In this document: in pieces, positions 6,721 through 21,332 of the stretch
Numbering within the stretch: the stretch's first letter is position 1
Layout: each line of letters begins with the position of its first letter
IMG/VR virus record: IMGVR_UViG_2698536559_000020
Strand: one strand, 5' to 3'
DNA from: a virus
Taxonomy: Duplodnaviria; Heunggongvirae; Uroviricota; Caudoviricetes
DNA length: 47,472 nt
The notes under the pieces: model-generated
What the model was told of the DNA's origin: nothing
Database searches by the model: none
Seen by the model: the letters and a program-made list of their open reading frames with translations, nothing else
Program-made: the position numbers and the translations under genes

Positions 6721-6825
6721 ATGGACGATGCGCTTTTAATTACACAATGGACACTTTCCTTCCGTGATTGGAAACTCTCAAATCACGGGAGGAAGATTGA
6801 AAAGGCGGGTAATAATGGTAACTAA
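6721..6825 (+). CDS. candidate small protein (34 aa) between OL and the cI 3' end
   Basis: strong SD AAGGAGG with 5 nt spacing to ATG; short; no homology recognised. Confidence 0.3.
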   Translation: MDDALLITQWTLSFRDWKLSNHGRKIEKAGNNGN

Positions 6826-6852
6826 ATTTCTGAAGGAGTGTTTTTTGATGCA

Positions 6853-7539
6853 TTACCAAGTGCGCGATGACCAGAATACTCTACCTATAACGTGAATTCT
6901 GGAACGCCTATCTTCGAAGGTGAGTATTTCATCTGGATACTCATCTTTATTGAAACTTCTTAGAATCAGACCACCGTCAGGTAAATTGATCAATATTTTA
7001 ACTCTAAGTAATACGCCATCACGTATAGCATAAAGATCCCCATCACGAATAGGAACTGTTTGGGAAACATCAACAGCAACAAAATCTCCATTGTTAAGTA
7101 CAGGTAGTAAACTATTACCCCAAATTTTTACGATCTTTGCATTGGAGACACATACACCAGCTTTCCTTAAATCAATCCTTCTTAGCGGGAACCAGTCTAC
7201 AGTTGATTCAACTATTTCAGCCAAACATCCATTACCCGCTGATAACTCGACATCTAGGACAGGAATGTTTGCAAAAATGTCAGGATCTAATGTTGTACTT
7301 TCAGCCTCCTTTACAACAAGGTTTGGGAAAGACGCGTTATCCTCAATGCCCAATTGCAACCACTTTTGAGAAACCCCTAACACTTTAGCAATCTCTTTAA
7401 TTTTCCGAGGCTGTTGAGTTTCTCCATTCTCGATTTTCGCTACGGATTGTTGTGAAAGCCCAATTTTTTCAGCTAGTTGCGCCTGACTCATTCCTGCTTT
7501 TTCTCTTTCGCTTTTTAGTCTTTCTGCCAATGTTTTCAC
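6853..7539 (-). CDS. CI-like prophage repressor (XRE HTH plus S24 LexA-like peptidase domain); GTG start
   Basis: N-terminal HTH (…MSQAQLAEKIGLSQQSVAKIENG…) and C-terminal S24 autocleavage domain; GTG start with GAGGGGG SD; divergent from a cro-like gene. Confidence 0.8.
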   Translation of the reverse strand: MKTLAERLKSEREKAGMSQAQLAEKIGLSQQSVAKIENGETQQPRKIKEIAKVLGVSQKWLQLGIEDNASFPNLVVKEAESTTLDPDIFANIPVLDVELSAGNGCLAEIVESTVDWFPLRRIDLRKAGVCVSNAKIVKIWGNSLLPVLNNGDFVAVDVSQTVPIRDGDLYAIRDGVLLRVKILINLPDGGLILRSFNKDEYPDEILTFEDRRSRIHVIGRVFWSSRTW

Positions 7540-12525: not shown

Positions 12526-13521
12526 GTGACCGTGAGAGCACTACTGACCCCTGAAATAGCCCCGCGTATGGGGATCGTATTGTTCAGACCAGGTTCAGAG
12601 CTGATGCCCCTGTTTATGCAGGGGCGTGTACTGCTGGAGCCTGAGCCGGAACGTTATTCATCTTTCGCCAGTGGTGCCGTTCCCGCAGCATCACAACCGC
12701 TGGCGGATGATCCTGCTGTTCGGGCCGTGTTCCGCAATGAGGCAGTGATCCGTCGTGCTGGTGGCGTGGAATGTCTTGAAAGCTGGTTACTTCGTGAAAA
12801 GGGCTGTCAGTGGCCTCATTCCAACTGGCACAGCGAGAACATGACCACAATGCGACACGCTCCGGGCGCAATCCGTCTGTGCTGGCACTGCGATAACCAG
12901 CTGCGCGATCAGTTCACGGAACGGCTGGAATCAATGGCAACGGATAACTGTGCCCGCTGGGTGTTGTCTGTTGTGCGTCGGGATCTCGGTTTTGATGATA
13001 GTCACGTTGTGACAATGCCGGAACTGTGCTGGTGGCTGATTCGTAATGATCTGGCGGATGCCTTACCGGAAAGCGCAGCCCGTAAGGCACTGAGATTACC
13101 GAAGCCTGTTGTGCCGTCTGTCACCCGGGAAAGTGACCTTGTGCCTTCGGTTCCTGCCACCAGCATCATCCAGGATAAAGCGAAAAAGGTGCTGGCGCTG
13201 AAAGTGGATCCGGAATCGCCGGAGTCTTTTATGTTACGCCCAAAACGTCGCCGCTGGGTTAACGAAAAGTACACGCGCTGGGTTAAGACGCAGCCGTGTG
13301 CATGTTGTGGAAAGCCTGCTGATGATCCCCACCACCTGATAGGCCACGGTCAGGGTGGAATGGGTACAAAAGCGCATGACCTCTTCGTGCTGCCTTTGTG
13401 CAGAAAGCATCACAACGAGCTGCATGCGGATACCGTGGCATTTGAAGAGAAGTATGGCTCCCAGCTGGAGCTGATATTTCGTTTTATCGATCGCGCGCTG
13501 GCAACTGGCGTGCTGGCGTAA
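12526..13521 (+). CDS. DUF968-like protein with C-terminal HNH-like zinc-finger motif
   Basis: C-terminal …CACCGK…HHLIGHGQGG…CRKHHNELH… Cys/His cluster; typical of the nin-region gene of lambdoid prophages. Confidence 0.5.
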   Translation: MTVRALLTPEIAPRMGIVLFRPGSELMPLFMQGRVLLEPEPERYSSFASGAVPAASQPLADDPAVRAVFRNEAVIRRAGGVECLESWLLREKGCQWPHSNWHSENMTTMRHAPGAIRLCWHCDNQLRDQFTERLESMATDNCARWVLSVVRRDLGFDDSHVVTMPELCWWLIRNDLADALPESAARKALRLPKPVVPSVTRESDLVPSVPATSIIQDKAKKVLALKVDPESPESFMLRPKRRRWVNEKYTRWVKTQPCACCGKPADDPHHLIGHGQGGMGTKAHDLFVLPLCRKHHNELHADTVAFEEKYGSQLELIFRFIDRALATGVLA

Positions 13522-13534
13522 GTGGAGAACGAGC

Positions 13535-14287
13535 ATGAACCTTGAGGCCTTACCAAAATATTACTCCCCAAAATCTCCAAAATTGAGCGATGACGCACTG
13601 GCGACAGGCTCGGGTGGTTTAACGATTACGGATGTGATGGCTGCGCAGGGGATGGTGCAGTCAAAAGCACCGCTTGGGTTTGCTTTATTCCTGGCAAAAG
13701 TTGGTGTTCAGGATCCTCAGTTTGCGATTGAAGGTCTGCTCAATTACGCGATGGCACTGGATAACCCGACATTGAACAAATTGAGTGAAGAAACCCGGTT
13801 ACAGATCATCCCTTACCTTGTGAATTTTGCCTTTGCTGATTATTCCAGGTCTGCGGCAAGTAAGGCTCGCTGTGAGCATTGTGCAGGTACGGGATTTCAT
13901 AATGTATTGCGCGAAGTGGTGAAACACTCCAGAAGCGGGGAGTCTGTTATCAAGGAAGAGTGGGTGAAGGAATTATGTCAGCATTGTCATGGTAAGGGAG
14001 AAGTCAGCACAGCGTGCAGAGGGTGTAAGGGTAAAGGTATTGTCCTGGATGAAAAAAGGACCCGGCTTCATGGCACGCCTGTTTATAAGATTTGTGGGCG
14101 TTGCAATGGAAACCGGTTTAGCCGTTTACCAACCACACTGGCGCGGCATCATGTCCAGAAGCTGATACCAGATCTGACGGATTATCAGTGGTACAAAGGA
14201 TATGCAGATGTCATTGATAAACTGGTTACAAAGTGCTGGCAGGAAGAAGCATATGCTGAGACACAATTGAGAAAAGTGACAAGATAA
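13535..14287 (+). CDS. late-gene antiterminator Q (QuuQ-like)
   Basis: CxxC…CxxC zinc-finger region, size 250 aa, immediately upstream of late promoter, terminator and lysis region. Confidence 0.7.
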   Translation: MNLEALPKYYSPKSPKLSDDALATGSGGLTITDVMAAQGMVQSKAPLGFALFLAKVGVQDPQFAIEGLLNYAMALDNPTLNKLSEETRLQIIPYLVNFAFADYSRSAASKARCEHCAGTGFHNVLREVVKHSRSGESVIKEEWVKELCQHCHGKGEVSTACRGCKGKGIVLDEKRTRLHGTPVYKICGRCNGNRFSRLPTTLARHHVQKLIPDLTDYQWYKGYADVIDKLVTKCWQEEAYAETQLRKVTR

Positions 14288-14318
14288 ATGATTTTCACCG
14301 AAGATGGCGACATGATGC

Positions 14319-14346
14319 TTGCATTTTCAAAAAATATGGATAAAAT
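14319..14346 (+). promoter_or_regulatory. late promoter PR'-like (TTGCAT, 16 nt, TAAAAT)
   Basis: consensus-like hexamers directly downstream of Q and about 45 nt upstream of a strong terminator. Confidence 0.45.
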
Positions 14347-14393
14347 TTACCAAACGATGGGCTTTGTATGTCTACCGTTGATAAGATTTAAGA

Positions 14394-14418
14394 ACCCGCC
14401 ACTGAGCGGGTTTTTTTG
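14394..14418 (+). terminator. tR'-like rho-independent terminator (Q antitermination target)
   Basis: CCCGC-loop-GCGGG followed by T7. Confidence 0.65.
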
Positions 14419-14673
14419 TGCCCGAAAATAAGCGTGGTGCTTTAAGCTTGCTGCAGGCTGTGAGTACAGGTCGTTCTGTTTGCAGTTTTTCGATAAGAAC
14501 AATAAATCAGATGGTAATTGAAATGAAAGCTGGTTGTTAATTTCGCGTTGCGTTTTCTTTGTTTTCTGAATAATGAAACATACTAGGACATTTATGTTCA
14601 TTAATTTTGTTCTTATTGAGTATCTCTGAGTTATTCGTATCATTCTGCCGTGCCATCGCAATGATGCGATGCG

Positions 14674-14749
14674 GGCCCTTTAGCTCAGTGGTCAGAGCGA
14701 GCGACTCATAATCGCCAGGTCGCTGGTTCAAGTCCAGCAAGGGCCACCA
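14674..14749 (+). tRNA. tRNA with CAU anticodon, ileX-like (tRNA-Ile2 lysidine type, or tRNA-Met)
   Basis: cloverleaf deduced by hand; anticodon loop CTCATAA; close to E. coli ileX sequence; CCA encoded. Confidence 0.75.
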
Positions 14750-14750
14750 G

Positions 14751-14827
14751 CCGTCACTAGCTCATCGGGACAGAGCATCAACCTTCTAAGTTGATTGTGC
14801 GGGGTTCAAGTCCCCGGTGACGGTCCA
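14751..14827 (+). tRNA. tRNA-Arg (UCU)
   Basis: perfect 7 bp acceptor stem CCGTCAC/GTGACGG, anticodon loop CTTCTAA, T-loop TTCAAGT, CCA encoded. Confidence 0.7.
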
Positions 14828-14829
14828 GT

Positions 14830-14905
<76 letters not shown>

Positions 14906-14908
14906 TAT

Positions 14909-14983
<75 letters not shown>

Positions 14984-15248
14984 GTGGACATGAGTTATAA
15001 AACTTGGCAGTGCTGATGTTTTCGTGGAGAGCGAAAATTCCCTTATCCATCTCCACTCTGTGACAGACGCAGGTCGCAGACTCAGCACTGTTTTTTTTAC
15101 AGCATTCAGATGGTGCGTTGTCTGTTTTGGTTCGGAGAGACAGGGTACGTAGCGCGCAGGACCTGGACTGATGACGCGCCATCTCAATGTCGTTAATATA
15201 AGAGGTGCCCCATCACCTCAAAAATAATATATGTCGTCTTATGCGTTC

Positions 15249-15275
15249 AACCGCCGTATATGGCGGTTTTTTTTA
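15249..15275 (+). terminator. rho-independent terminator
   Basis: CCGCC-GTATAT-GGCGG followed by T8. Confidence 0.6.
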
Positions 15276-15310
15276 TTCCCTCAATTTTCTGTTTATAGAG
15301 GTTATTCGCA

Positions 15311-15805
15311 ATGCGTAATGTGTCGTTTGACGTTCGCTATTCCTTTCATCTTGAAACGATGATGGCGACCCTGTACCGAAGGCTGGAATATCTGCTTTAT
15401 TTTATTCTGATGCTGGCTGGTGGGCTTGTTCTGGCAGATGTGGGTAATACCGCGTTACAGGGGCTGGTGGTCATCATTGTTGCTTTCACTGCGCTCACAC
15501 TTCGTCCCGCAAGAAATGCGCTGCTGTGTGAATCTCAGGCCGCAAGATACCGTGAGCTCATGCATGATTTTGAGTTTCATCCGGATGAAACAGAGTTTCC
15601 CGATATGGATGAAATTGAGCTGCATGACAACACCGCAATTGGCCTGCTGAGGAATGCTGCATACAAGAGAACGCTGATAGTGCTCGGGTATTCACAGGAG
15701 GCAAATGCCATTCATCTCACAATGATGGAGAAAATCGCAGCATGGTTTGCCGGTGATCTGCCGGAAGAGTGTGTGCCCGCTGGTGCAGTGGATAACGAAA
15801 TCTGA
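15311..15805 (+). CDS. hypothetical two-transmembrane-helix protein (moron between tRNAs and lysis cassette)
   Basis: two hydrophobic helices near the N-terminus followed by an acidic soluble domain; occupies the locus where lambdoid phages carry toxin/moron genes. Confidence 0.5.
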   Translation: MRNVSFDVRYSFHLETMMATLYRRLEYLLYFILMLAGGLVLADVGNTALQGLVVIIVAFTALTLRPARNALLCESQAARYRELMHDFEFHPDETEFPDMDEIELHDNTAIGLLRNAAYKRTLIVLGYSQEANAIHLTMMEKIAAWFAGDLPEECVPAGAVDNEI

Positions 15806-15911
15806 AAATGCCTGTTTTCAGTTGAGAGATACGCTCCGGAAGACCAAACTGATTAACGCAAAGGTAATACATTTATTGTTTTGAAAATCCGATCAGCACG
15901 TTTGCTTTTCT

Positions 15912-15964
15912 GCCAGCTCCCCCAGAGCTGGCTTTTTTTGAGGTCTGCTCCGGCAGGCTTTTTT
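15912..15964 (+). terminator. tandem rho-independent terminators upstream of the Rha cassette
   Basis: GCCAGCTC…GAGCTGGC then T7; then GGTCTGCTCCGGCAGGC then T6. Confidence 0.5.
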
Positions 15965-16104
15965 ATTTCCGCGCCACGCCCGGCGCATATCAAAAACCAC
16001 AGAGCCTTACAGAAATGAGCTTCGGAGAAACACCGTAATAAGCGGCGGCTTCTCTGTGGGCGGTGTTTCTGGGCGACGAGGCTCATTTCTGTAAGGAGAG
16101 CGTG

Positions 16105-16656
16105 ATGAACTATCCAACCGTTGTTAACGGCATTGATTTTCGCGATCTTGTTTTTGTGACAGGCAACGAGCCAGTGACGGATACCCGAAAGGTTGCCGTA
16201 GCATTTGGTAAAGAACATAAAGATGTATTGCGGAAAACAAGGGCCGTCATTCAACAATGCTCAAAAGAATTTGCAGAGCGCAATTTTGCGCTTTGCTATG
16301 AAAACAATGAGTTACAGAACGGTAAACCACAGCCTGTATATCGAATGACAAAAGACGGTTGGACGATGTTGGTATTTGGTTTTACGGGGAAGGCCGCAAT
16401 GACCTTTAAGGAAGCGTACATCCAGGCTTTCAACTGGATGGCGGAGCTTATTCGGCAGGGAGTGGCAAATCTTGAGGCTGAACGCAATGCCGTCATGCTG
16501 GAATACATGAAAGAGAAGGATGTTGCCAGTATGTCGGGGCGTTTGCTTAACCGCTGGGGAAGAGTGAAAAAGCCACAGCTTCAGGCAAGGATCGAACAAC
16601 TTGAGCAGCGAGGGCAGATATCCCTGCCCGGTATCGACAGCGTATTAACACACTGA
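16105..16656 (+). CDS. Rha-family phage regulatory protein (antirepressor-like)
   Basis: …TDTRKVAVAFGKEHKDVLRKTRAV… Rha signature; AAGGAG SD 6 nt upstream. Confidence 0.75.
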   Translation: MNYPTVVNGIDFRDLVFVTGNEPVTDTRKVAVAFGKEHKDVLRKTRAVIQQCSKEFAERNFALCYENNELQNGKPQPVYRMTKDGWTMLVFGFTGKAAMTFKEAYIQAFNWMAELIRQGVANLEAERNAVMLEYMKEKDVASMSGRLLNRWGRVKKPQLQARIEQLEQRGQISLPGIDSVLTH

Positions 16657-16680
16657 GGTCTGCTACGGCAGGCTTTTTTG
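16655..16680 (+). terminator. rho-independent terminator, near-identical copy of the hairpin at 15941-15964
   Basis: GAGGTCTGCTACGGCAGGC then T6 immediately after the Rha stop codon. Confidence 0.55.
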
Positions 16681-16873
16681 TGTCGGCACACAGCAGCGCA
16701 ATAGTCACTGTTAGTTTGTTCCCGGGAGGGATAAATGAAAATTAATTCATGTTTTTTTCATGAAAAAGGTTTTTTTGTGGCGTGCGATCGCCAGGATGAC
16801 TTCTTCCTCAGTTTCGGGCCTGATATTGGCGTGGGGCGTTTCTCATTCATTCGCCCCGCGCGGGAGCATGGCG

Positions 16874-17368
16874 TTACCGCAGGGCTTTTTCAATTAACGG
16901 AAGTGCTGCCGGAATGTTCATTACCCCCTGAGTCAGTAATTGCAGGGTCAAATGTTTTATGGCGTCTGACGGAAGCTCTCGAAGTTTTGAAATCAGTCCC
17001 TTCTTCTGATCTTCAGGAATATTGGCAATCCGGATTATGTCCTCTATAGCAGTCAGGGTGCTGTGATGAAATTTTATGGTCTGAACTTTCAGTATGGCGC
17101 TCAGACCACCATCATTTCGCAGAAAATCAATGCCATTGATTGTGATTGCTGGCATCCAGACATGGCTGTATCCGCATGAGTCAAGTCGTAATCCACTGGT
17201 TATAAGACCATGACCTTCCAGATATAAAAGATTAGCAATCGCTGTTTTGTTGTCAGGGAATACCGATAACAGGCGCTTTAACTGCTCATTGTTTCTTATT
17301 TTGTCGGGGAATATGTCGTTGAGAGACGATAAGAGCTCGAGTTGCGTTTGACGATCGAACTTGTCCAT
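16874..17368 (-). CDS. hypothetical protein (164 aa), reverse-strand moron inside the late region
   Basis: AT-rich, protein-like helical sequence; the overlapping + strand ORF 16735..17049 looks less protein-like. Confidence 0.45.
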   Translation of the reverse strand: MDKFDRQTQLELLSSLNDIFPDKIRNNEQLKRLLSVFPDNKTAIANLLYLEGHGLITSGLRLDSCGYSHVWMPAITINGIDFLRNDGGLSAILKVQTIKFHHSTLTAIEDIIRIANIPEDQKKGLISKLRELPSDAIKHLTLQLLTQGVMNIPAALPLIEKALR

Positions 17369-17506
17369 GATGAGTGCTTGCTTTTGATAGTGTTAATTCA
17401 TGAAGTTTAACTCCGCCAAAGTTATTTATTCAACCGCCCTTCAGGGCGGGCAGAAGCCTTCACATCGACACTGAGGTCGCCATCCGGCGGCCTTTTTTGT
17501 ACCCGA

Positions 17507-18079
17507 ATGAAAACCTTCATCTGTACTGCCAGCGGTCCTTCGCTGTCTGCTGAGGACTGCCGGTTTATTGCGGACTGCGGTCTGCCTGTCATCGCCGTTA
17601 ACAGCACCTGGAAACGGGTTCCTTTTGCCACGCACGTGTTTGCCTGTGACTTCTCCTGGTGGAAGGCCTGCGTCCGTCACATCACCATTCCGGCTCAGCG
17701 CTGGACTGACAGCCGGGCTGCTCACAAGCGCTTCGGCATTAACTTCTTTCCTGAAGAGCGCGGCTCTCCGGTTAACTCCGGCAGACGGGCCATTGAGTTT
17801 GCGCTCTGGCTGGGAGCGGAGCGGGTGATTCTGCTGGGATATGACTGCTCCGTCTCACGCGGAACACACTGGCACGGTGACCATCCGGAGGGGCTTAAGA
17901 ACCCGACGGAGAACAGCACACGTCTGTGGCGGAGCGAATTTGAAAAACACGCGTCCGTACTGAATGCACGGGCGGAAATCATCAACTGTTCGGTGGAAAC
18001 AGCCCTGACCTGCTTTCCCCGGCGACGGCTCAGGGAGGTTCTTGATGCCACTGTCAAAAAGTCGCCCCGTGTATGTTAA
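17507..18079 (+). CDS. DUF115 / GT42-like (Cst sialyltransferase-like) glycosyltransferase-domain protein
   Basis: N-terminal …ASGPSL… then …VIAVN…, …FACDFSWW…, …ILLGYDC… resemble the GxGPSL / RCNQF / LSGIDFY motifs of Cst-II-type enzymes; no SD upstream, start immediately follows a hairpin. Confidence 0.4.
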   Translation: MKTFICTASGPSLSAEDCRFIADCGLPVIAVNSTWKRVPFATHVFACDFSWWKACVRHITIPAQRWTDSRAAHKRFGINFFPEERGSPVNSGRRAIEFALWLGAERVILLGYDCSVSRGTHWHGDHPEGLKNPTENSTRLWRSEFEKHASVLNARAEIINCSVETALTCFPRRRLREVLDATVKKSPRVC

Positions 18080-18977
18080 GGGAATGCACGGGATTGGCGA
18101 CAACATTAACCAGCGCATGTTCATTGATGCGCTTTCGCGTGCCGGATACAGGGTGGAGCTACAGACACCCCTGCCACAGCTTTACGCGGACCTGCCGGGG
18201 GTGACCTTCATTCCCTCGGAGACCACCCTGCGTACCCAGCAGAAAAATGAGCAGCGGGCCTACAGGAGCCTGCCGTACATCGCCCGACCCTCACCGGATG
18301 CACAGCGTATCCGCATCATGCATGACCGGCAGAGCAAGGCGCAGGGGGAAAGCGTCGTTATGACAATGACACGACAGTTCGGGATTGCGCCAGCTCCGGC
18401 GTCTCTTCCGTCGTTCAGGCGTTCATCACTGGTGGTGACCGACAAACCGGTGGCGGTGATTCGTCCGACAACGGTGCGCAATGAGTGGAAGACCACCTCT
18501 CGTGGACCGCTGAATGAGTACATCGACATGGCCTCGCGGATGCTCGCTTCGCGCGGTTATCACTGTGTGAGTGTGGCAGACCTTAACGAGTCTGATGCCT
18601 GTGAAAAGCGTCGCGAATGGATTGACGGCATGGTGCCGTTTGCGCATCAGCGATTTCATCACGGTGAGCTGTCACCGGAAGAACTGCTGTCACTGACTGA
18701 GAGCGCGGCTGTGGTGGTCTGCGGGGACTGTCTGCTGCTGCACGCAGCGATAGCGTACGGTACCCCGCTGCTGGCCATTCTTGGTGGCATGGGCGGTGCC
18801 TGTCGTCCTGAGATTATTGCTGACCCGTCCCACTATGACCTGTCGAAGGTGTGCTTCATTAAGCCGGACAATTTCTGTCTGTGTCATGAGATGACGCACG
18901 ACTGCGACAAGCACATCAGCGGAGCGGAAGGCAAAATCGCGGCGTTTCTGGATGGCCCCGTATTCAGGGGAGGCTGA
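18045..18977 (+). CDS. GT9-like (heptosyltransferase-fold, GT-B) glycosyltransferase
   Basis: N-terminal …GIGDNINQ…, C-terminal …VVVCGDCLLLHAAIAYGTPLLAILGG… resemble GT9 motifs; GGGAGG SD; overlaps upstream gene by 35 nt. Confidence 0.45.
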   Translation: MPLSKSRPVYVKGMHGIGDNINQRMFIDALSRAGYRVELQTPLPQLYADLPGVTFIPSETTLRTQQKNEQRAYRSLPYIARPSPDAQRIRIMHDRQSKAQGESVVMTMTRQFGIAPAPASLPSFRRSSLVVTDKPVAVIRPTTVRNEWKTTSRGPLNEYIDMASRMLASRGYHCVSVADLNESDACEKRREWIDGMVPFAHQRFHHGELSPEELLSLTESAAVVVCGDCLLLHAAIAYGTPLLAILGGMGGACRPEIIADPSHYDLSKVCFIKPDNFCLCHEMTHDCDKHISGAEGKIAAFLDGPVFRGG

Positions 18978-18978
18978 T

Positions 18979-19299
18979 ATGCCTGACAAATCACCGGGAT
19001 TCTGGATGTCCCTGCTGGCCTGGTTTCGGGCGGAGCCGGATGTGTCTGTTGCTGCTGCAACCGGGCTGATGGCCCTGCTGCGTTCCTGTCAGCAGGGAAA
19101 GTCACTGAGGGCGATGTTGCTGGACTCATGCATCTGCGCCTTTCTGGCGTTTTATCTGCGTGATGCGCTGGGGCTGTGCGGTGTGGACCAGGACTGGGCC
19201 ATGATTCTGGGCGTGGTGCTGGGGTATCTGGGGACAGAGTTCATCCGCACCCTGCTGATTCGCTGGGCGGAGCGTCGCGCCGGGATTACCCGACACTGA
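18979..19299 (+). CDS. class I holin (lambda S-like)
   Basis: …CICAFLAFYLRDALGLCG…ILGVVLGYLGTEFIRTLLIRWAERRAG… aligns with lambda S; followed by endolysin. Confidence 0.75.
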   Translation: MPDKSPGFWMSLLAWFRAEPDVSVAAATGLMALLRSCQQGKSLRAMLLDSCICAFLAFYLRDALGLCGVDQDWAMILGVVLGYLGTEFIRTLLIRWAERRAGITRH

Positions 19300-19312
19300 A
19301 GGAGTTCTCATT

Positions 19313-19780
19313 ATGAACAAAAATGTGAAGGCCTTTCTGGATGCGCTGGCGTGGACAGAAGGCACCAGTACCAGCCGTTACACGAAAAATGACGGTTACG
19401 ACATCATCGTTGACGGCATCGACTCGCCGCACACCTTCACGGACTACAGCACACATCCGGCTGTTCTGGTCACGGTTAACCGTCGCGGGCTGAAATCCAC
19501 GGCAGCAGGGCGTTACCAGCTGCTGTCCCGTTACTGGCCGCATTACCGCGACCTGCTGAAACTGCCGGACTTCTCGCCAGCCTCACAGGATGCGGTGGCC
19601 GTGCAGATGATAAAGGAGCAGGGGGCATATGCGGATGTGGTGGCGGGGCGTACTGAGATTGCCGTGCAGAAGTGCCGGAACATCTGGGCCAGCCTGCCGG
19701 GGGCCGGATACGGTCAGCGTGAGGTGACGATGGCGATGTTCGTGGCGCAGTACCGGCGCTGTGGCGGGGTGACGGCATGA
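19313..19780 (+). CDS. endolysin, lambda R-type lytic transglycosylase
   Basis: …KAFLD.LAWSEGT…GAGRYQLLSR.W…FSP.SQDAVA.Q.IKE.GA…IWASLPGAGYGQ… matches lambda R. Confidence 0.85.
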   Translation: MNKNVKAFLDALAWTEGTSTSRYTKNDGYDIIVDGIDSPHTFTDYSTHPAVLVTVNRRGLKSTAAGRYQLLSRYWPHYRDLLKLPDFSPASQDAVAVQMIKEQGAYADVVAGRTEIAVQKCRNIWASLPGAGYGQREVTMAMFVAQYRRCGGVTA

Positions 19781-20013
19781 GTGTGATACCGCAATGGCGT
19801 TACTGGTGGCGTTTCTACTCGACGCATGCCCTGCTTATCGCCTCTGCCGTGCCGCTGGCGATGAATGAGGCGGAATCATATCTCGGGCAGTCGCTGCCGT
19901 TCTGGCTGAAGCTGCTGGTTGCCCTGGTCATTCTGGTCAGTGGTGTGACTGGTCGTCTGATTGTGCAGGTGAAGGAGGGGGAGAATGTGGACACTGCTCA
20001 GCGCACTGATTAG
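19777..20013 (+). CDS. small membrane protein (78 aa) in the lysis cassette
   Basis: two hydrophobic segments; ATG overlaps endolysin stop. Confidence 0.35.
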   Translation: MSVIPQWRYWWRFYSTHALLIASAVPLAMNEAESYLGQSLPFWLKLLVALVILVSGVTGRLIVQVKEGENVDTAQRTD

Positions 20014-20266
20014 TGCCATTGCCGCCTTCTTCGGTGCCAGAAAGGCTGATACCGCACAGAGCGAAAAACAGCTCATCAACCGCACGTCCCGTACCGGGGC
20101 TGACATCACCCGAAAAACACAGAGGAAAACAGAACGTGAAATTCGTGAAGCGACTGATATCAGCGCTGCTGATTCCGGGCGCGTGCGTGCTTCTGGCAGC
20201 GTGTCAGAACGCACCGGAATCATTAACGACGCAATCCGACGGGTTAACGGTGAAGGCCACCGTTAA
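19985..20266 (+). CDS. i-spanin (Rz-like)
   Basis: N-terminal TM helix then charged helical periplasmic domain; contains the start of the o-spanin in another frame. Confidence 0.55.
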   Translation: MWTLLSALISAIAAFFGARKADTAQSEKQLINRTSRTGADITRKTQRKTEREIREATDISAADSGRVRASGSVSERTGIINDAIRRVNGEGHR

Positions 20267-20480
20267 CTGTGGAGAGGACACGCCTTTCCACACGCTGCCG
20301 TCTTATCCGGAGTGCAGTGAATGTGACAAGACTGACGACCCTGCTGTTCTGCGCGATTACATCGCTGCTCAGCAGGCGTGGGCCATCGACGCCGTCGGTG
20401 TCCACACCTGGAACAGCATATTACGTGACAATACCGCCAGCTGTCTCAGACAACTGCGGGACAGCGGCATCATCAACTGA
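20136..20480 (+). CDS. o-spanin (Rz1-like lipoprotein), GTG start, overlapped architecture
   Basis: signal peptide with lipobox LLAAC (…KFVKRLISALLIPGACVLLAAC…), starts inside the i-spanin gene in a different frame. Confidence 0.5.
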   Translation: MKFVKRLISALLIPGACVLLAACQNAPESLTTQSDGLTVKATVNCGEDTPFHTLPSYPECSECDKTDDPAVLRDYIAAQQAWAIDAVGVHTWNSILRDNTASCLRQLRDSGIIN

Positions 20481-20502
20481 ACCTGACGCAGAGGAAAGAA
20501 AC

Positions 20503-20853
20503 ATGAGCGTATCACTCAGCACCCTGTCAACGATTGTCTCCGGCGTGTCAGCGATAGCGTCGGGGGTGGTCAGTGTTTACGAAAACGGCGCGAAGCTGCT
20601 GGACATTATGAAGTCTGCCATCGTGAAGGTGGAAGAGGCTTACGAAGCGCTGAAGGCAACGGGTGCCACCAAGAAGGCGCTGGTGCTTGCCACCCTGAAA
20701 GCGGCGGCAGAGTCGCTGGGGGAGGAATGGGACAACATCTGCGCCTATTTCTCGGCGCTGATTGACTCGGTGGTGGACCTGTACAACACGGCGGTGGCGG
20801 CAATATCCGGTACGACGGATGAAGACGCCGCCGGCGAAGAGGTTACCGCCTGA
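20503..20853 (+). CDS. hypothetical protein (116 aa)
   Basis: GAGGAAAGAAAC upstream of ATG; followed by hairpin plus T-run. Confidence 0.45.
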   Translation: MSVSLSTLSTIVSGVSAIASGVVSVYENGAKLLDIMKSAIVKVEEAYEALKATGATKKALVLATLKAAAESLGEEWDNICAYFSALIDSVVDLYNTAVAAISGTTDEDAAGEEVTA

Positions 20854-20900: not shown

Positions 20901-21332
20901 ATGTCAAAAATCACACTAACGGTCGCAGAGACCATCAGCATTGTGCTGAACAACGATGATGTGCTTTCTCTGGTGAAGCAGAAATATCTGGAATCCACGC
21001 CGCCGGAATTTGACCTGAGCGAACTGGAGGCGCTGGTCAGTGACACGTCAGATGATGACGAACCAGAGGCTGACGAATCAGAGACTGATACGGACAGTCT
21101 GGCACTGTCTGAAACGACGGTCAGCGGAAAGGCGGGCGACACACTCACCGTTCAGGCCACCGCCGCAGGCGACAGCGACGTGCAGGTGAATACCTCAGAC
21201 CTGAGCGTTGCGACAGCAGAATATGCAGACGGCGTGCTTACCATCACTCTGGTGGCAGAAGGCACGGCAACCATCACACTGACGAAAGGTGAGTCCTCTG
21301 CGGAGGTGGCAGTCACCGTGACGGCAGACTGA
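20901..21332 (+). CDS. hypothetical acidic protein with Ig-like (BIG2-like) C-terminal segment
   Basis: GAGGAGAAAAA SD; followed by strong terminator CCCCGG…CCGGGG T5. Confidence 0.45.
   Translation: MSKITLTVAETISIVLNNDDVLSLVKQKYLESTPPEFDLSELEALVSDTSDDDEPEADESETDTDSLALSETTVSGKAGDTLTVQATAAGDSDVQVNTSDLSVATAEYADGVLTITLVAEGTATITLTKGESSAEVAVTVTAD

Follow-up and report, generated by a model that had tools for sequence, protein, structure and literature searches.

A probably late-expressed pair of phage genes with DUF115/MptE-like and GT9-like folds, a putative glycan-building unit related to a conserved phage cassette

The stretch of DNA analysed here, hereafter the window, is the 47,472-nucleotide (nt) virus record IMGVR_UViG_2698536559_000020 of IMG/VR (Caudoviricetes), which is 100% identical to a prophage beside zur/dinF in Escherichia coli 2015C-4136CT1. 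Among sequenced phages, no near-identical DNA was found. Our subject is a pair of overlapping genes in it, called A and B, that lie immediately upstream of the holin gene. By sequence comparison, the pair is a reduced, methyltransferase-less member of a conserved phage cassette. Both proteins belong at the level of the fold to the glycosyltransferase families with which they had been compared, and neither passes the curated sequence thresholds of those families. We hold the enzyme folds, the functional coupling, the cassette membership and the late expression with high confidence. In the model that we favour, A and B would be two soluble enzymes acting as one glycan-building unit in the late lytic phase of the prophage; they would place a short glycan of the 3-deoxy-D-manno-oct-2-ulosonic acid (Kdo)/heptose type onto an acceptor present late in infection, with a methyl cap in the canonical cassette. 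The preferred acceptor would be a component of the assembling virion and not the lipopolysaccharide (LPS) of the lysogen. Taken as a whole chain, this explanation is possible rather than probable. The features on which the argument depends are the following.

13534-14286, + strand: Q-type antiterminator gene (RefSeq 'antitermination protein', locus L001 16135-16887, offset 2601)
17473-17498, + strand: intrinsic terminator with a 9-bp G+C-rich stem, a 4-nt loop and U6 (-16.5 kcal/mol, z -3.2)
17507-18079, + strand: gene A, 190 aa, predicted soluble DUF115/MptE-like (Maf/sialyltransferase-fold) enzyme and putative transferase of cytidine monophosphate (CMP)-ulosonic acids (Kdo-type), without a Shine-Dalgarno sequence
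18033-18038, + strand: Shine-Dalgarno sequence of B, GGGAGG, within the 3' end of A, read directly from the sequence
18045-18977, + strand: gene B, 310 aa from ATG, predicted GT-B enzyme from a family that is specific to phages and a distant relation of the GT9 heptosyltransferases
18979-19299, + strand: holin gene of the lambda S family (Pfam E 4.5e-20; TIGR01594 above cut-off)
19313-19780, + strand: GH24 endolysin gene, next after the holin gene

A sequence-only reading of this DNA had described two glycosyltransferase-like genes that overlap by 35 nt, and both open reading frames (ORFs), the overlap (18045-18079) and the motifs quoted for A were confirmed in the sequence and its translation. 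The start codon of A is the first possible one after a stop. As had been said, A lacks a Shine-Dalgarno sequence and starts right after a hairpin: the terminator ends 8 nt 5' of its ATG, with no purine-rich Shine-Dalgarno between. The Shine-Dalgarno sequence of B ends 6 nt 5' of the B ATG, and a TTG is present at 18042. The stop codon of B (18975-18977) is separated by 1 nt from the holin ATG at 18979, and the Shine-Dalgarno sequence of the holin gene, GGGGAGG (18967-18973), sits within the end of B. The proposal that the two genes are expressed together is supported by the 35-nt overlap, by the Shine-Dalgarno sequence inside A and by A-B fusion proteins in other phages; B is thus probably translated by coupling to A, through the overlap and the internal Shine-Dalgarno. 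RefSeq annotates the identical DNA with the PGAP names 'hypothetical protein', 'glycosyltransferase family 9 protein' and 'phage holin, lambda family'.

The motifs of A, namely SGPSL (residues 9-13), IAVN (29-32), FACDFSWW (45-52) and ILLGYDC (108-114), are not chance resemblances, since they fall on invariant columns of the A family alignment (S9, G10, S12, N32, D48, W52, G111 and D113). PHROG 4603 matches A strongly (E 3.7e-53). Against the Pfam MptE-like/DUF115 family (PF01973) A scores 21.9 bits, below the cut-off of 34.6 and over residues 91-117 only, and a precomputed PF01973 match is present in about 40 of 120 listed A homologues. The AlphaFold model of A, based on the family alignment, has a predicted local distance difference test score (pLDDT) of 93 and contains the DUF115/MptE core fold, with Maf (PDB 5mu5) as its best structural match (165 of 190 residues aligned). 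The family profile reaches the CstII sialyltransferases as the only solved proteins, via nucleotide-sugar binding motifs, and the GxGPSL, (T/N)SG and LxGxD motifs align to CstII residues 3-64 and 124-162; sequence similarity of A to CstI/CstII is marginal (E 0.055). An HWHGDH cluster was found in the A family specifically. The DUF115/GT42 likeness claimed earlier for A therefore stands at fold level, through Maf and CstII, and falls short by sequence score. We regard a DUF115/MptE-like fold, common to Maf and the GT42 Cst sialyltransferases, as a good assignment for A on the combined basis of model and profile.

This fold is also common to pyrophosphokinases, which counts against our reading of A as a glycosyltransferase. 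A might instead be an enzyme of the pyrophosphokinase type, as are MptE HPPK and thiamine pyrophosphokinase; A, B and the methyltransferase would then synthesise or degrade a small molecule, for example a modified sugar nucleotide or a metabolite of signalling or defence. We consider this very unlikely, since the closest structure is that of a glycosyltransferase, the CstII enzymes are the sole solved proteins in reach of the profile, the fusion partners of B are glycan enzymes, and PADLOC matched no defence system to A, B or their neighbours.

For B, the structural evidence points to GT9. The AlphaFold model, again from the family alignment, has a pLDDT of 95 and a GT-B fold closest to solved GT9 enzymes by structure comparison. 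The four nearest solved structures are all GT9 (3tov, scoring 19.1; TibC, 18.6; WaaF, 18.3; WaaC, 16.3); a GT9-like chloroplast NDH subunit also scores 16.3, and every other GT-B enzyme scores at most 11. In GT9 enzymes the catalytic Asp lies in the loop after the first beta-strand, as does D13 of WaaC. In TibC the catalytic Asp is D110 (PMC4358343). The invariant G16-x-G18-D19 of B stands after strand 9-12 and before helix 17-32, a placement by secondary structure. The ADP-binding (adenosine diphosphate) C-lobe of B aligns to WaaF in a profile alignment. The curated sequence models tell a different story: B scores 17.6 bits against Pfam GT9 (PF01075; cut-off 22), 27.2 bits against the heptosyltransferase II model TIGR02195 (cut-off 134.6) and 17.8 bits against PRK10916 (cut-off 569), so that the GT9 assignment proposed from the sequence holds for the fold, where the nearest four structures carry it, and not for the score. 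Two close B homologues, P0122 and P0123, do have a precomputed PF01075 match, and B itself is matched strongly by PHROG 6804, of unknown function (E 3e-70).

The family to which B belongs has features of its own. It contains many invariant arginines and an invariant C-terminal CxCx4HxC (C278-x-C280-x4-H285-x-C287). A full HMMER scan of 1.84 billion cluster representatives gave 963 clusters with relatives of B, 640 of them at E <= 1e-30; with only 963 relatives, the family looks narrow and far from mainstream GT9. A fold search of BFVD with B returned weak matches only (TM 0.5-0.6), to uncharacterised viral GT9-like proteins. One metagenomic protein of 1032 aa, P0281, combines a B-family domain with a canonical GT9 domain into which an intein carrying a LAGLIDADG endonuclease is inserted.

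Placed among their relatives, A and B are recognizable as parts of a larger unit. We define the cassette as PHROG 4603 (A), PHROG 6804 (B) and a Methyltransf_23 methyltransferase, and compared 108 related loci, 84 from phages or viral contigs and 24 from bacterial genomes. The order A-B-methyltransferase occurs in 96 of the 108, that is in 75 of the 84 phage and viral-contig loci, where the genes mostly overlap, and in 21 of the 24 bacterial loci, all 24 of which have the three genes. The methyltransferase, about 205 aa long, is of the generic Methyltransf_23 small-molecule type and not of the DNA methyltransferase type. Other phages encode A and B as a single polypeptide (P0197, P0169, P0170 and many further representatives), and further fusions join methyltransferase with B, LicD with B, canonical GT9 with B, and A with B, B' and a GT9-like domain; the fusion partners of B thus indicate a multi-step glycan-assembly pathway. 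The cassette is present on at least 406 viral contigs, with 640 protein clusters at 50% identity. Members include gp10-gp11-gp12 of PAJU2, orf7/orf12/orf13 of D3 and gp5-gp4-gp3 of the Klebsiella jumbo phage Eowyn, all uncharacterised. Full-text literature searches found no published characterisation of the cassette. Plasmids almost never carry it (4 of 72,556 plasmid records, two of the four being phage-sized replicons of 52-57 kb), and its hosts are all Proteobacteria except for one cyanophage and three doubtful metagenomic or contaminated contigs. In one Erwinia tracheiphila locus (L108:5974-6893) with an otherwise complete cassette, B is broken up into two ORFs, probably as a pseudogene.

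The window differs from the canonical form in lacking the third gene: a tblastn search of the whole window with three cassette methyltransferases found none (best E 0.8), and the E. coli relatives L090-L094 likewise lack it. The two genes are nonetheless maintained. The ratio of nonsynonymous to synonymous substitution rates (dN/dS) is 0.24 for A and 0.14 for B against L090, and 0.08 and 0.10 against L091. Purifying selection on both genes implies that the two-gene form is a functional variant; that it might be a decaying remnant was ruled out by these ratios (0.08-0.24) and by the intact frames of the diverged copies. The earlier remark that glycosyltransferases of LPS inner-core type are unusual in a lambdoid late region needs correcting, in that the pair is a reduced copy of a widespread phage cassette, although rare in E. 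coli, where A-B is found in only 3 of 5426 complete genomes. Save for the loss of the methyltransferase, the window holds an ordinary cassette member.

The position of the pair suggests that its expression is confined to the late programme. The terminator at 17473-17498 is the top-ranked terminator-like site within 13400-20600, at least five terminator-like sites lie between Q and A, and no promoter-like site was found before A on the + strand (17369-17506). Given these terminators and no promoter-like site, only antiterminated, Q-modified late transcription should reach A and B. The Q antiterminator, whose gene is matched by Pfam Antiterm in the relative L091, should carry transcription past the terminators and on into A-B and the lysis genes. 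The pair would then be transcribed only within the Q-antiterminated late operon with the holin and endolysin genes, and B would be coupled to A. A possible regulatory role had been suggested for the hairpin before A, which is an ordinary intrinsic terminator. Terminator-like hairpins precede A in 12 of 59 distinct loci; among other genes set off by 30 nt or more the figure is 39 of 334. The enrichment is not significant (Fisher p = 0.09), and a role beyond termination was dropped. In L090 a hairpin and U-run likewise stand before A, with a different sequence.

Three look-alike intrinsic terminators of the form GAGGTC(T/G)GC..CGGC(A/G)GGC(T/C)TTTTT lie on the + strand at 15940-15961, 16655-16676 and 17473-17494, each closing a small gene unit between Q and A. 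Two of the three also have ACACTGAGGTC just before. The likeness suggests that units bounded by terminators were inserted repeatedly, or that one terminator was duplicated.

In the relatives, the cassette is always co-directional with late operons and occupies three types of site.

Site type 1: between a Q-like gene and the holin/endolysin genes
Site type 2: between spanin/endolysin genes and HNH, TerS, TerL or portal genes
Site type 3: flanked by head-completion and tail genes, where stop and start codons overlap

In D3-like phages and Mulvp2 it is embedded among head-tail connector genes. Its carriers also include strictly lytic phages, namely jumbo phages and a T4-like cyanophage in which the cassette stands beside the neck gene gp14. 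Together these positions point to an accessory function during lytic growth and speak against lysogenic conversion.

What the two enzymes would make can be approached through their donors. The donors of DUF115 and GT42 enzymes are CMP-ulosonic acids, and that of GT9 enzymes is ADP-heptose. Essentially every proteobacterial host makes CMP-Kdo as its CMP-ulosonate and ADP-heptose as its ADP-sugar. As the only such near-universal donors, they suggest that the product would be a short Kdo/heptose-type glycan, and a host range bound to Proteobacteria, one cyanophage aside, fits donors that are specific to Gram-negative bacteria. By family membership, A would use a CMP-Kdo-type donor of the host and B its ADP-heptose, identities that could equally turn out to be right or wrong. 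For the acceptor, we tentatively favour a component of the virion, because several unrelated phages have the cassette embedded among their head-tail genes and because the depositors of PAJU2 labelled its A homologue a 'structural protein'; this choice, which we rank slightly ahead of LPS, is itself less than probable.

A number of observations weigh against a Kdo/heptose glycan on the virion. GT9 enzymes carry the sugar-binding motif D-(S/T)-G-x-x-H in their C-lobe, and opposite the 'DSGlmH' of WaaF the B consensus reads 'gvGwivP', so that the motif is not conserved in the B family (B of the window reads GDCLLLH at this place, by eye); the donor of B may therefore not be ADP-heptose. The basis of the PAJU2 label is unverified, and the Ab31 paper does not speak to it. 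When six genes on each side of about 80 loci were clustered, no universal neighbour gene emerged as a candidate acceptor. A 221-aa protein stands directly after the cassette in three loci, and since its gene lies just upstream of TerS in the window, it is probably part of the packaging module. The P1 homologues of A are dispensable for plaque formation (PMC10695390), so any virion role would be accessory. Furthermore, the virion proteins of the cassette phages are unrelated, as these include the siphovirus D3, the myovirus P1, jumbo phages and T4-like phages; A is a bare single-domain catalytic core of 190 aa without the substrate-binding domains of Maf; and B keeps its N-lobe motif TxLRTQxKN unchanged from host to host. 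Such diverse virion proteins, a bare core and an invariant motif suggest instead a chemically constant acceptor.

One acceptor of this kind is the inner core of LPS. The sequence-only reading had offered two roles: modification of host LPS, for receptor masking or lysogenic conversion, and glycosylation of a phage or host macromolecule, the second of which is possible. In the LPS scheme A and B would act like enzymes of the WaaA/WaaZ and WaaC/WaaF types on Kdo2-lipid A, or on some other glycolipid of the envelope, at the inner membrane, and the inner-core change could mask the receptor, keep progeny from adsorbing to debris or weaken the outer membrane at lysis. WaaF and WaaC are indeed among the nearest characterised enzymes of B by structure, and WaaF again through TIGR02195 and the profile alignment. 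An acceptor that is constant and anionic, Kdo for instance, would match the invariant Arg/Gln/Asn motif that B has in its acceptor lobe, essentially all hosts are Proteobacteria, the cassette often adjoins lysis genes, and B is fused to LicD, of a family that decorates surface glycans. Against this, B lies far below the cut-offs of LPS heptosyltransferase equivalogs (27 versus 134.6 bits) and belongs to a narrow family (963 clusters among 1.84 billion representatives), and plasmids, on which envelope-modifying genes move about freely, almost never carry the cassette. Late infection would leave little time to replace surface LPS. Lysogenic conversion, or receptor masking of LPS, is the least supported of the roles that had been proposed for the pair: A has no promoter of its own and a terminator upstream, the pair is packed against the holin gene, and the cassette sits tightly within late or structural operons and occurs in strictly lytic phages. 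Overall, we consider modification of LPS or another lipid-linked glycan unlikely.

DNA would be another constant acceptor, common to all cassette phages. On this explanation phage DNA (or RNA) would be glycosylated before packaging as protection against restriction, in the way of Mu Mom or of the Kdo/heptose DNA glycosyltransferases. The genes are late and non-essential and often stand beside HNH or terminase genes, B is rich in invariant arginines and has a Cys/His knuckle, and phage GT-B enzymes that place Kdo and heptose on 5-hydroxymethylcytosine (5hmC) DNA exist (bioRxiv 10.1101/2023.12.21.572611). Known systems, however, need a C5-methyltransferase and a TET-type oxygenase, or a hydroxymethylase, to create the hydroxyl, and the RefSeq annotation of 41.6 kb covering window positions 1-39000 contains no hydroxymethylase, TET or C5-methyltransferase. 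B resembles GT9 and not the T4 beta-glucosyltransferase, and the cassette methyltransferase is, as described, of a small-molecule type. We know of no glycosylation of unmodified DNA bases. Nucleic-acid hypermodification is thus improbable to our minds.

The structures closest to A and B include the protein O-glycosyltransferases Maf and TibC, which raises the possibility that the pair, like TibC/AAH or Maf, modifies a conserved host protein for late development or anti-defence. Such a target would explain the invariant acceptor-side residues of B. We give this explanation little credence: neither the N-terminal beta-barrel nor the four-Cys iron finger of TibC is present in B, the domains that flank the core in Maf are missing from A, and no candidate target was found. 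Host takeover functions are, moreover, usually early and not late.

A broader proposal is that many phages of Gram-negative bacteria, P1 and D3 among them, carry a dedicated late enzyme set made up of a DUF115 ulosonic-acid transferase, a GT9-like heptosyltransferase and, in most cases, a methyltransferase, and that this set diverts LPS inner-core precursors of the host into a Kdo-heptose(-O-methyl) glycan on the phage's own particles or DNA. We consider it unlikely; if true, it would amount to a kind of virion decoration so far undescribed in such phages, and the long-unexplained P1 'pmg' genes pmgO and pmgP would gain a function.

The pair lies in a late module that is foreign to most E. coli prophages, given a step in G+C content together with its occurrence in only 3 of 5426 genomes. 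G+C rises from 42-49% to 57-62% at about 17.4 kb, at the terminator before A, and stays high through the lysis genes; the three genomes with A-B are also alone, among the 5426, in carrying the adjoining lysis genes. With this rare late module and the G+C step, the prophage joins an early region that is common in E. coli to a rare late one. The order is Q antiterminator, four tRNA genes, several terminator-closed small units, A-B, holin and endolysin, a layout that resembles Shiga toxin (Stx) phages, with A-B where the toxin genes sit there. The other features of note in this part of the window are listed here.

14674-14983, + strand: four tandem tRNA genes with anticodons CAT, TCT, TGT and TCC, downstream of Q as in Stx phages
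16874-17368, - strand: 164-aa ORF between the Rha gene and A, matching PHROG 3983, of unknown function (E 1.5e-52)
20901-21332, + strand: gene of a 143-aa Ig-domain protein, between the lysis and terminase genes, matching PHROG 215 'structural protein with Ig domain' (E 4e-10)

The tRNA with anticodon CAT is called tRNA-Ile by PGAP and Met by ARAGORN. The 164-aa ORF matched no Pfam, NCBIfam or PADLOC family, and the relatives L091 and L092 have a shorter interval from Q to A without it. The Ig-domain protein has an acidic linker rich in Ser, Thr, Asp and Glu and a C-terminal Big_2 Ig-like domain (Pfam Big_2 just below cut-off). It is possibly a virion decoration protein, and that it might be the target of glycosylation is speculative; its co-occurrence with the cassette is limited to identical copies of the prophage.

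In L090, a diverged relative from E. coli, the amino-acid identities of A and B are 77% and 79%; downstream come a nanS-p-like DUF1737+SASA esterase and DUF1378, as is typical of an Stx-phage late region. Here (L090:2643-4887) A-B stands directly upstream of the nanS-p-like gene, which encodes a sialate O-acetylesterase, and of a DUF1737+DUF6645 gene. That a gene with a sialyltransferase fold adjoins a sialate esterase is probably coincidental, a product of late regions of the Stx-phage type.

Compared with its nearest counterparts, the cassettes of PAJU2, D3 and Eowyn, the pair in the window has the same order and strand, overlapping frames and a place in a late or structural operon, at 42-48% identity for A and 37-43% for B. 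Unlike them, the window and its E. coli relatives lack the methyltransferase and carry the pair between the Q region and the holin gene (in L090 upstream of nanS-p), not among head-tail genes. Phages P1 and P7 carry A-type genes only, and P1 has no B homologue. PmgO of P1 is 40% identical to A and PmgP is a second, divergent DUF115-like protein; PmgO, PmgP and PmgQ of P1 and HdmB of P7 ('putative morphogenetic function') are encoded in the late operon and dispensable for plaque formation. PmgQ, which follows the ppp phosphatase gene, is named 'glycosyltransferase' in RefSeq, is unrelated to B and has no Pfam match (PmgP and PmgQ are at L003:5504-6130 and 6801-7502). P1 may thus carry an analogous three-enzyme sugar module without a GT9-like member.

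The enzymes themselves depart from their characterised relatives. A corresponds to the core alone, without the flanking substrate-binding domains of Maf, a 632-residue chain, or the lid of CstII. Relative to WaaC and WaaF, B adds the invariant CxCx4HxC, its family lacks D-S-G-x-x-H, and it is phage-borne and late-expressed. TibC has 406 aa, with its barrel at residues 1-97 (PMC4358343), whereas the predicted structure of the 310-aa B begins directly at the Rossmann strand 9-12, and no beta-hairpin thumb was seen; the four-Cys iron finger of TibC (C339/C342/C358/C370; PMC4358343) is not matched by the CxCx4HxC of B, and in contrast to TibC/AAH no autotransporter gene is annotated near A-B in the window. 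The Kdo/heptose 5hmC-DNA glycosyltransferases (bioRxiv 10.1101/2023.12.21.572611) are alike in being a phage-encoded, multi-enzyme decoration that uses host sugar nucleotides and inner-core sugars. They differ in enzyme families and in their need for 5hmC-forming enzymes, none of which is annotated in window positions 1-39000.

The acceptor, once known, would show what Gram-negative phages decorate with host inner-core sugars, and the cassette could matter for the host range of phages, for immune recognition or for defence evasion. Found almost exclusively in phages, it includes genes of P1 and D3 that have gone over 20 years without a function. Known roles of phage glycosyltransferases include O-antigen conversion, DNA glucosylation and the glycosylation of mycobacteriophage virions, the last through gene sets that combine glycosyltransferases with O-methyltransferases; no virion glycosylation is known to us for the Gram-negative phages considered here. 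Set beside these systems, a DUF115 enzyme paired with a divergent GT9-like one in a phage-specific, late-expressed unit, here without the methyltransferase, fits none of them cleanly, and the unit joins two enzyme types that otherwise serve the LPS inner core or the glycosylation of flagellin or adhesins.

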